Of a stretch of 5,775 bases of DNA, positions 1,591-4,316 are shown piece after piece. Source of the stretch: a virus (lineage: Duplodnaviria; Heunggongvirae; Uroviricota; Caudoviricetes); IMG/VR virus record IMGVR_UViG_2740892442_000009; one strand, given 5' to 3'. The notes under the pieces were generated by a model. That model saw only the letters and a list, made by a program, of their open reading frames with translations. It did not search any database and was not told where the DNA came from. A program made the position numbers and the translations under genes. Numbering within the stretch: the stretch's first letter is position 1; each line of letters begins with the position of its first letter.

Positions 1591-1602
1591 ACAGCCTTGC
1601 TT

Positions 1603-1644
1603 TATGAATAAAACGCACCCCAGCAGCCAGTGCTACTGGGGGCG
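1603..1644 (-). terminator. Rho-independent terminator downstream of trkG
   Basis: On the minus strand: CGCCCCCAGTAGC / ACTG loop / GCTGCTGGGGTGCG (about 13 bp of GC-rich stem with one bulged base), immediately followed by TTTTATTCAT. The plus strand has no T-tract after the hairpin, so it is unidirectional for the minus strand. Confidence 0.6.
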
Positions 1645-1727
1645 GAGGTGTTGCTGGTAAAGTTAGGTATTGGATCAATGAGTGAGTCAATATAATATTA
1701 AACTCACAATTATAAATCAGCCATATA

Positions 1728-3184
1728 TTAGGAGCGCCAAAAAAAAACTGAAAACAATATAATAACAGGATAAATTTCAAGGCGACCAAGAATCATAGCT
1801 ATGCACATTAAATATTTTGCAATGTCATTAAGCACTCCGAATGACGATGCAGTAGCCCCAAAACCTAATCCCATATTATTAATACATGCAGCCACTGTTG
1901 CAAATGATGTAAGAAAATCATATCCCATACCATTTAACACCAGTATAAAAAACACCGTGAAGAGAGTATAAAGAAAAAAGAAACTCCATACAGACCTCAT
2001 TACACGATCTGTAACTATCTTCCCTCCTACATTTACACTCAACAACGCTCTGGGATGAGAAAGCTGATTTATCTCGTGTTTGCTTTGTTTGAAAAGTATA
2101 AGAAATCGAAGTGACTTAATTCCACCACAAGTTGAACCTATACATCCCCCAAAGAAACTTGACAACAGCAAAAACACTATCGTGTGCGTGGGCCAGTTTG
2201 CATAATCTTGCGTAGCTAAACCATTATCAGTGAGCATGGAGCTGGCAAGAAAAAACGAATGAATAAAACTTCCATGCAAGTCATACATACCTATATGCCA
2301 GACCTGGAAAGAGGTAACAATGATCACCACTAAGGCTATTAACAGAAAGAAACGAAGTTCAATATCTCTGATTAAAGGTTTTATCGTTTTTCTGCTAATA
2401 ACAATATACCAAAGAGTAAAGTTGAAAGCCGATAGCAGGGAAAAAGCACCAGCCACCAGCTCAACCAAATAGTTATTAAAATATCCGATACTCTCGCTAT
2501 GAGTTGAGAAACCACCAAGCGAAACTGTGGAAATCCCGTGACAAATAGCATCAAACAAAGGCATTCCTGCAAGTCTATAACAGACAATACAAGCAATACC
2601 TAATAAAGAATAAGTTATCCACAGTGTCCGTGACGTATCGGCCAGGCGGGGAGTGAGTTTGTCATCCTTAAATGGCCCCGGCATTTCTGACTGATAAAGC
2701 TTTGCACCACCAATACCCAATAATGGCAATACTGCAACCGCCAGAACAATAACTCCTAAACCACCTATAAAATTTAACTGTGACCGATAGTACAAATATG
2801 CCCGAGGTAATGAACTAACATCATCAATTACAGTTGCTCCTGTTGTTGTTATTCCAGAAACCCCTTCAAACAGAGCATCAATGAACGTTAAATTAAGTTC
2901 TGAGTCAATCCATAAAGGGAATGCACTAATAACAGAAAACAAAATCCAAAACATTACAATTATAATAAACCCATCACGGTACGTAATTGAATGCCAGATT
3001 TCTTAGTTGTATACCACGCTCCGCCACCAATGCAAAAAAATATAACGAAAGTTATAAAGAAAACGAACAGGCTTTTTTCTTTATAAAACAATGCTACAAC
3101 CATTGGTGGCAACATTGAAAGACTATAGAGCCAAACCAGGAACCCACACATATGAGTAACAACTCTTACATGAGATGTATTCAT
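1728..3184 (-). pseudogene. trkG: TrkG/TrkH-family potassium uptake protein, disrupted by a 1-bp frameshift (prophage moron)
   Basis: Two same-strand ORFs in different frames. ATG at 3184..3182 gives MNTSHVRVVTHMCGFLVWLYSLSMLPPMVVALFYKEKSLFVFFITFVIFFCIGGGAWYTTKKSGIQLRT and then terminates (VMGLL*, stop at 2962..2960); the track's TTG start at 3202 is 6 codons upstream. The second frame (408 aa, 1728..2954) is open upstream of its ATG and reads RDGFIIIV-MFWILFSVISAFPLW..., continuing the same multi-pass membrane protein. Joining the pieces gives 69 + 8 + 408 = 485 aa, the length I recall for E. coli TrkG. One base appears to be missing from a G-run at plus 2978-2979 (ACGGT where ACGGGT would restore the frame). 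The region is markedly AT-rich relative to its flanks. Confidence 0.8.
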
Positions 3185-3201
3185 ATCTAAATATTCTTTC
3201 A

Positions 3202-3240
3202 ATTATAACCACCTTGCTGCAATATTATGATTATACTGTA
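3202..3240 (-). promoter_or_regulatory. Candidate sigma-70 -10 elements upstream of trkG in the AT-rich intergenic region
   Basis: Two perfect TATAAT hexamers on the minus strand (plus 3232-3237 and 3202-3207), 18-50 bp upstream of the trkG ATG. No convincing -35 partner, so this is a weak call. Confidence 0.25.
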
Positions 3241-3321
3241 TAAAATTTAACTCCTCTTAGATCTTACTTCACTGTTCCTTATGAAACAATCATCAAAATG
3301 AATCATATTGTAGTTAAGATT

Positions 3322-3786
3322 TTACTTTAAACACTGTTCGGTTATGTATTGCTGAGCACCTTCAAGTTGGGCCTGCATCATTACCAGTCGTTCCCGGAGG
3401 GTGAAATAATCCCGTTCAGCGGTGTCTGCCAGTCTGGGGGAGACTGCATTATCCACGCTGGAGGTGGCGGTGGCTTCACGCACTGACTGACAGACTGCTT
3501 TGATGCGCAACCGACGACGACCAGCGGCAACATCATCACGCAGAGCATCATTTTCAGCTTTCGCATCAGCTAACTCCTTCAGGTATTTTGCATCGAGTGC
3601 AGCAACATCACGCTGGCGTATCTGCATGTCAGTAATGATTGCGGTCGCCTGGTTGAGTTTTTCCGTCACATTATCGCGTTGCGCTTTGTAGGTAATGGCA
3701 TTATCACGGTAATGATTAACAGCCCATGACAGGCAGACGATGATGCAGATAACCAGAGCATAAATAATCACGGCAACTCTGCTCAC
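3322..3786 (-). CDS. Rz: Rz i-spanin (inner-membrane spanin subunit)
   Basis: The translation (…[37 protein letters not shown]…[90 protein letters not shown]) closely resembles lambda Rz: N-terminal TM helix followed by coiled-coil. I place the start at GTG 3786..3784, which overlaps the endolysin TGA stop (GTGA), mirroring the ATGA coupling in lambda and giving 154 aa. The track's start at 3801 is a TTG. Confidence 0.8.
3381..3566 (-). CDS. Rz1: Rz1 o-spanin (outer-membrane lipoprotein), fully embedded in Rz in the +1 frame
   Basis: ATG at 3566..3564 preceded by a strong SD (AAGGAG, 7-nt spacer). The product [61 protein letters not shown] has a lipoprotein signal with a lipobox Cys and a proline-rich mature part, and is near-identical in pattern to lambda Rz1. 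Confidence 0.85.
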
Positions 3787-4316
3787 TGCTCTATCCCCCA
3801 ACAGGCTAATGCGCTCTCCTGATCACGACGAATAACCTGACCGTAACAGTTATTTGAACGAAGGCGGCAATCGCGCCCCCTGTCCTTAATCCACCAGCGA
3901 ATCGCCTCGCAGGCACCTTTACGATCACCTGCATTCAGCCGCTTATAAAATGTCGACGGAAAACACTTAGCGGGGCCAATGTTATAGGGACAAAATGACG
4001 CGATACCCGCTTTTTGTGGTTCGGTCAGTGTTACTTTAATATTGCGATCCACCCATGCCAGCGCCTTATCACGCTCAATGGCATTAACCTGATCGCATTT
4101 TTCCTTCGTCAGCCTCATTCCCGGTATGACGGGCTTACCATCCACCATTGTGGCACCACGACAGATGGTCCATATACCGGAACCATCGCGGTATGCCGTT
4201 GTGTGGTTACCTTCTTTTTCATCCAGAAACTGGTCGAGAATATCAGGCGCAGGCGCACCGACGGCAATCAGTGCCAGAACGGCAGCCGACAGGCCGTATC
4301 TGATTTTTGCGTTCAT
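3783..4316 (-). CDS. R: Phage endolysin, GH24 (T4-lysozyme-like) with N-terminal signal-anchor-release (SAR) domain
   Basis: 177 aa. N-terminal weakly hydrophobic Gly/Ala-rich segment ([18 protein letters not shown]) typical of a SAR domain. Catalytic E-x8-D-x5-T triad present ([16 protein letters not shown]). It resembles the 177-aa R lysozymes of Stx-type lambdoid phages as I recall them. No canonical SD upstream of the ATG (…GATAAATATCCATG). Confidence 0.9.

Follow-up and report, generated by a model that had tools for sequence, protein, structure and literature searches.

Does a prophage-borne trkG gene that is broken in two by one missing base record the loss of a potassium transporter, an unusual way of making one, or an error made between template and deposited sequence? 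This question is raised by the window, by which we mean the whole 5,775-nt stretch of DNA analyzed here, where two adjacent ORFs stand in place of a single trkG gene. The original prediction called trkG frameshifted and left the choice between pseudogenization and a homopolymer error open. Its anatomy was right, and the frameshift is a true description of the deposited sequence, but it is probably not a property of the organism. The evidence favors a sequencing error: an Ion Torrent PGM source, a relative with GGG at the site, a count of 0 among 5426 complete genomes, and recurrence of the same deletion in PGM data from E. coli K-12 MG1655.

Anatomy and family of the split gene

The features that define the lesion are as follows.

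1728 to 3184, minus strand: trkG, which in a Rac-like prophage remnant encodes a Trk-system K+ transporter; interrupted here, and 485 codons long with the base restored.
2960 to 3184, minus strand: ORF of the N-terminal fragment; 69 native residues, then out-of-frame VMGLL and a TAA stop.
1728 to 2954, minus strand: ORF of the 408-aa remainder; its start is native Met78, and it is deposited as KZO73569.1.
2978 to 2979, plus strand: GG run with one G missing; GGG in an otherwise identical complete genome.

The N-terminal ORF starts with the ATG at 3184 and reads MNTSHVRVV...KKSGIQLRT before it leaves the native frame through VMGLL and ends at the TAA at 2962-2960, its 74 codons being 69 native and 5 out-of-frame ones. 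Extended to an upstream TTG, as in the ORF listing, it has 80 aa. Followed backwards from the ATG at 2954, the second frame yields EIWHSITY-RDGFIIIV-MFWI; it is bounded by the TAA at 3005-3003, and both trkG frames are open together over 43 nt (3002-2960). On the gene strand, ACC CGT has become ACC GT at the lesion. Putting the base back produces a single ORF of 485 aa (69 + 8 + 408). A continuous ORF that joins residues 1-77 to the core is absent from the window, which offers 74 and 408 aa instead, and is present in E. coli TUM10008, the closest complete relative. The proposal that the two minus-strand ORFs are consecutive pieces of one TrkH-family gene is borne out by the reading frames and by the profile matches described below, and the RDGFIIIV(M)FW segment that had been placed upstream of the second ATG is recovered when the frame is read back. 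The second piece had also been described as lacking a Shine-Dalgarno (SD) sequence of its own, and the 25 nt before its ATG (CCGTGATGGGTTTATTATAATTGTA) indeed contain nothing SD-like, which makes it unlikely that the 408-aa ORF is translated.

We next consider what kind of protein the restored gene would encode. Both the 408-aa piece and the restored 485-aa protein match the Pfam TrkH family (PF02386; 444.6 and 479.4 bits, respectively, against a cut-off of 27) and the NCBIfam model TIGR00933 (417.2 and 416.1 bits, cut-off 331.15). The 408-aa ORF retains the entire TIGR00933 core (model positions 1-391), and the 74-aa piece weakly matches the TrkH equivalog model NF008020 over positions 2-70. 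The restored protein scores 451.8 bits against NF008020, below that model's cut-off of 866; what the window encodes is not TrkH but its paralogue, an ordinary TrkG. Among proteins of known structure, Vibrio parahaemolyticus TrkH (PDB 3PJZ, 4J9U) aligns with residues 7-485 of the restored protein (E = 2.6e-122), whereas KtrB (PDB 4J7C, 7ZP9, 8K1S) aligns to TrkG only from residues 80-84 on (E = 1e-5 to 6e-10). The 74-aa fragment therefore corresponds to an N-terminal segment of TrkH-type proteins that KtrB does not have. This segment is the two-helix D0 domain reported by Cao et al. 2011.

The KtrB alignment brings up one alternative, in which the split is real and functional and the 408-aa piece is translated from Met78 as a KtrB-like TrkG without the two N-terminal helices. 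The whole TIGR00933 core does lie within this ORF (417 bits vs 331), and KtrB itself demonstrates that transporters of this superfamily can exist without the N-terminal segment. The ATG at 2954 has no SD-like sequence, though, and the first core helix would lose eight residues, RDGFIIIV; moreover, every argument that we give below for the deletion being an artifact, as it likely is, applies here equally. On these three grounds a functional TrkG lacking D0 was rejected, and we give the idea next to no credence. KtrB is distantly related to TrkG, its partner is KtrA, not TrkA, and its likeness to the truncated 408-aa ORF is incidental. Were the deletion nevertheless real, the 408-aa ORF would keep the conserved core minus those first eight residues of the first helix.

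Source contig, closest relative and allele frequency

The window and contig JUDY01000107.1 from the draft assembly of E. coli RCE04 (GCA_001630845.1) are the same 5775 bp in opposite orientations, and the window is thus one complete contig; the 408-aa product KZO73569.1 comes from this contig. In a megablast search of 5426 complete E. coli genomes, the only full-length cover of the window was found in TUM10008 (NZ_CP135658.1). The corresponding stretch there spans 5776 bases, one more than the window, and all 5775 window bases are identical. The sole difference is one extra G in TUM10008, which reads CACGGGTACG where the window reads CACGGTACG (2978-2979). It had been predicted from the frames that one G was missing from the plus-strand run at exactly this place, and the TUM10008 record has GGG there. 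PGAP annotates the trkG of TUM10008 as intact (485 aa, WP_024211319.1). The check that had been proposed for the frameshift was to look for GGG and an intact 485-aa ORF on resequencing; TUM10008 has both and stands as a proxy for, rather than a resequencing of, RCE04. It is a different isolate, from Japan, while RCE04 comes from the clinic of PMC5517970. We also considered that the window might be an altered copy of the TUM10008 record, given the one-base difference; this was ruled out, as the window equals the deposited contig JUDY01000107.1.

Taken at face value, the contig says that RCE04 truly and recently lost one G of GGG and with it a dispensable prophage K+ transporter. The deletion does stand in the deposited sequence, and since TUM10008 is a different isolate, a mutation private to RCE04 is conceivable. 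TrkH, Kdp and Kup are known from E. coli K-12 and would cover K+ uptake without TrkG. Genuine decay would nonetheless be expected to leave other traces, and the 5775 bases show no further degenerative change when compared with the intact TUM10008. To see whether relatives share the lesion, we queried genomes with a 43-mer centered on the site, with which the intact allele shares no 28-base word. This GG 43-mer occurred in 0 of the 5426 complete E. coli genomes, taken irrespective of sequencing platform, so no relative among them has inherited the lesion. The control, a 44-mer of the GGG allele, was present in 1520 of the same 5426 genomes, 1506 of them at 100% identity and K-12 MG1655 included. 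An exact 32-mer of the GG allele had no match in GTDB species representatives or in JGI metagenome contigs.

The control count bears on the same reading from the other side: trkG is accessory, and a real loss of it would be unsurprising. Further cases of a trkG disrupted near its N-terminus have been deposited as well, in a run of seven T at codons 48-50. A T6 allele of this run occurs in a Logan contig of SRR12849861 (691-696) and in one complete DH5alpha assembly (NZ_CP045741.1, 3503643-3503684), and a T8 allele in a Logan contig of SRR32281394 (2491-2498). Both alleles give the 408-aa remainder too. In a collection of 15 billion proteins (NCBI, ENA, JGI and Logan), the exact 408-aa product of the K-12 allele is found on 248 contigs, the longest of 5.28 Mb. 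This number, which can be counted in favor of pseudogenization, indicates that calls of an N-terminally disrupted or truncated trkG are not rare.

Separately, the intact trkG 44-mer was found at 15 places on plasmid records, so the gene also occurs outside Rac-like prophages of the chromosome.

The same counts bear on recoding. The original prediction saw no slippery heptamer at the break and concluded that there is no programmed frameshifting. The first statement was mistaken, as one such heptamer is present.

2966 to 2972, minus strand: G GGT TTA heptamer (X XXY YYZ); a chance feature that the upstream frame reads in phase, within the 43-nt overlap.

After the deletion the upstream frame runs AT G GGT TTA TTA TAA, and restoring the frame would take a -1 shift. 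A slip on G GGT TTA would yield a 485-aa product with the substitutions R70V, D71M and F73L. One could thus suppose that the gene is truly GG and that ribosomes slipping by -1 on G GGU UUA make full-length TrkG, for which the in-phase heptamer, its position within the overlap and a 0-frame stop one codon later would all be suitable. The phase of the heptamer, however, is a creation of the deletion: in all 1520 genomes that have the segment intact, it falls in another phase of a continuous ORF. The usual stimulators are missing as well. The 80 nt downstream are no better folded than shuffled sequence (MFE -11.4 kcal/mol, z = -1.06, equalled by 34 of 200 shuffles), and the 20 nt upstream hold no GGAGG-like or otherwise SD-like element. 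The shifted arrangement is found in 0 complete genomes and in none of the GTDB representatives or JGI metagenomes. A G run of this length is too short for transcriptional slippage. With no stimulator and no conservation of the heptamer phase or of the arrangement, a programmed -1 frameshift site was rejected, and the second statement of the original prediction survives; we regard recoding as having a negligible chance of being correct.

Recurrence of the deletion in Ion Torrent data

The assembly JUDY00000000, to which the contig belongs, is that of E. coli RCE04, which came from a patient with Crohn's disease and was sequenced on the Ion Torrent PGM with a 318 chip and a 200-bp kit and assembled with MIRA 4 (PMC5517970). 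Its authors point out that Ion Torrent homopolymer errors lead to artificial frameshifts in CDSs, and that a correction tool reduces artificial indels only ~2.5-fold (PMC5517970). That residual artificial frameshifts are reported by those who made the assembly speaks against a genuine loss of trkG. A class of error with the appropriate properties has been described by Bragg et al. 2013, who found "high frequency indel" errors on the PGM at a rate of ~1 per 1000-2000 bp of reference, with frameshifts in assemblies as a result (PMC3623719). The strand-asymmetric high-frequency indels fell in homopolymers of 2-3 nt in 82% of cases and were mostly deletions of C or G (PMC3623719). Most high-frequency indels were specific to a run, and a subset was shared between runs beyond chance (PMC3623719).

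Homopolymer length does not look like what sets the trkG site apart. The window contains 88 runs of at least 4 bases, runs of 7 and 9 nt among them, and none differs from TUM10008. The trkG deletion therefore fits a site-specific error rather than one driven by homopolymer length. The sequence TACGTAC beside the site resembles the PGM flow order, and an effect of flow order is offered here as a guess.

The same deletion is found in other data sets. The Logan assemblies of at least three runs, SRR515926, SRR915701 and SRR765913, contain exact copies of the 74-aa and 80-aa fragments, VMGLL tail included. The contigs of these three runs have the Rac context of K-12, with ynaK, ydaY, a tape-measure remnant and lom, and they carry the K-12 trkG allele, 13 SNPs from the allele in the window. 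Compared with MG1655, they have 0 mismatches over 4239 nt (SRR515926), 2616 nt (SRR915701) and 1204 nt (SRR765913), and one gap each, at the trkG site. MG1655 records carry GGG at this site, and the trkG of K-12 is intact. One and the same base is missing in two allelic backgrounds, and each time its absence is the sole difference from an intact reference.

The origin of one of these runs is documented: SRR915701 is an Ion Torrent PGM run on a mixture of K-12 MG1655 and human DNA (PMC3810253). The assembly of this run equals K-12 except for the gap, which means that the deletion appears in PGM data from a template known to be intact. SRR515925, the accession adjoining SRR515926, is listed as MG1655 Ion PGM reads (PMC4915045), and we infer that SRR515926 is from the same submission. 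A literature search for the platforms of SRR515926 and SRR765913 returned no documentation other than that of the neighboring SRR515925. Overall, at least two independent PGM data sets show the deletion, and the true number is probably four or five.

Because the identical deletion appears in a PGM run of MG1655, in which the allele is a different one and the gene is intact, the factor shared with RCE04 is the platform and not descent. This is one reason why we judge a true inactivation of trkG in RCE04 to be improbable, despite the dispensability of the gene. Recurrence could in principle have a biological cause. GGG would then be a real deletion hot spot, struck separately in K-12 stocks and RCE04, and low-level in-phase slippage on G GGU UUA would yield a full-length variant (R70V, D71M, F73L), making the allele leaky rather than null. 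Two allelic backgrounds would suit such a recurrent mutation. It was set aside, as the runs and the assembly trace to PGM data, one of them from MG1655, and we see it as very improbable.

A site-specific Ion Torrent under-call is very likely the source of the split in trkG, which would then be an artifact of base calling and assembly. According to this model, the PGM would reproducibly under-call the three-base G/C run at the trkG site as two bases. The under-call would survive the MIRA consensus and the correction applied by the authors, and one G would be lost from the contig, creating a false frameshift. The RCE04 organism itself most probably carries an intact 485-aa TrkG, as does the otherwise identical prophage remnant of TUM10008. 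This reading draws on what was observed, namely which contig the window is, the platform behind it, a one-base difference, an allele that no complete genome searched carries, and the same deletion in PGM data from MG1655; from these we infer that the RCE04 reads themselves carry the deletion error. The frameshift is best filed as not being a real feature.

The deposited 408-aa "TrkG" (KZO73569.1) and the missing N-terminal fragment are accordingly both probable products of platform error, and KZO73569.1 should not count as evidence of trkG decay in Crohn's-associated E. coli. Beyond this strain, the trkG site is a modest but repeatable case of Ion Torrent dropping a base, in a context-specific way, from a run of only three, and the loss survives consensus assembly in independent data sets. 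Such a case is useful wherever pseudogenes or variants are called from drafts of the PGM era or from runs of this kind that were assembled automatically. Should the deletion prove real after all, it would amount to the ordinary loss of a dispensable prophage cargo gene.

Prophage context and comparison with known systems

Several features of the surrounding prophage remnant are worth describing in their own right. A chimeric minus-strand ORF starts at 1590 and is cut off by the left end of the window; in TUM10008 it carries the annotation "gpJ" (1339 aa). Its first ~260 codons are ynaK, of the ParB/Srx family (ParB_N at residues 23-90), and from ~residue 288 it continues in frame into the domains of tail tip protein J, with the junction near window position 810. 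Other genomes are homologous to the window only down to 810-813 and then continue with TAGT/GREB1-like, terminase and portal genes. It follows that the head and tail module was lost through a deletion reaching from the end of ynaK into J. Among the 5426 complete genomes, the ynaK-J junction is common only to TUM10008.

On the other side of trkG, a 61-aa ORF (3381-3566, minus strand) is embedded in another frame of an Rz-like "lysis protein" gene (3322-3801). It has a lipoprotein signal and a proline-rich stretch, the pattern of an Rz1/RzoD o-spanin. The ORF is unannotated in the RefSeq record of TUM10008; rzoD is annotated in K-12. The contig ends inside the J-like tail gene on its left, and on its right it reaches two bases into the end of a Hok/Gef family gene. 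These end genes probably explain why the PGM assembly broke into a 5.8-kb contig here, if they recur in the other prophages of RCE04, as expected.

Base composition also changes across the remnant. From 1600 to 3400, trkG and the intergenic region upstream of it form a block of ~35-41% G+C between flanks of ~49-60% G+C, consistent with the AT-rich trkG block being cargo acquired from elsewhere. TrkG has been described as a K+ transporter of low affinity that acts together with TrkA and whose gene was inserted into Rac with its own promoter (PMC5811629).

The closest known system is the TrkG of the K-12 Rac prophage (WP_001097895.1). Its gene occupies the same position after the prophage lysis cassette and has 485 codons, as does the restored window gene. 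AT-richness is likewise common to both, the trkG of the window having 37.7% G+C vs 47.0% for the window as a whole. The two alleles differ by 13 SNPs in a 1.7-kb alignment, in addition to the one G that the window lacks at 2978-2979. The downstream context differs more extensively, with the ynaK-J fusion in the window and ynaK-ydaY-ynaA-lom in K-12. As for the error, it resembles the described class of PGM high-frequency indels in being a single G/C deletion, in a 3-nt run, in PGM data, with a frameshift in the assembly as its outcome. It departs from that class in recurring across runs, the indels described there being mostly run-specific.
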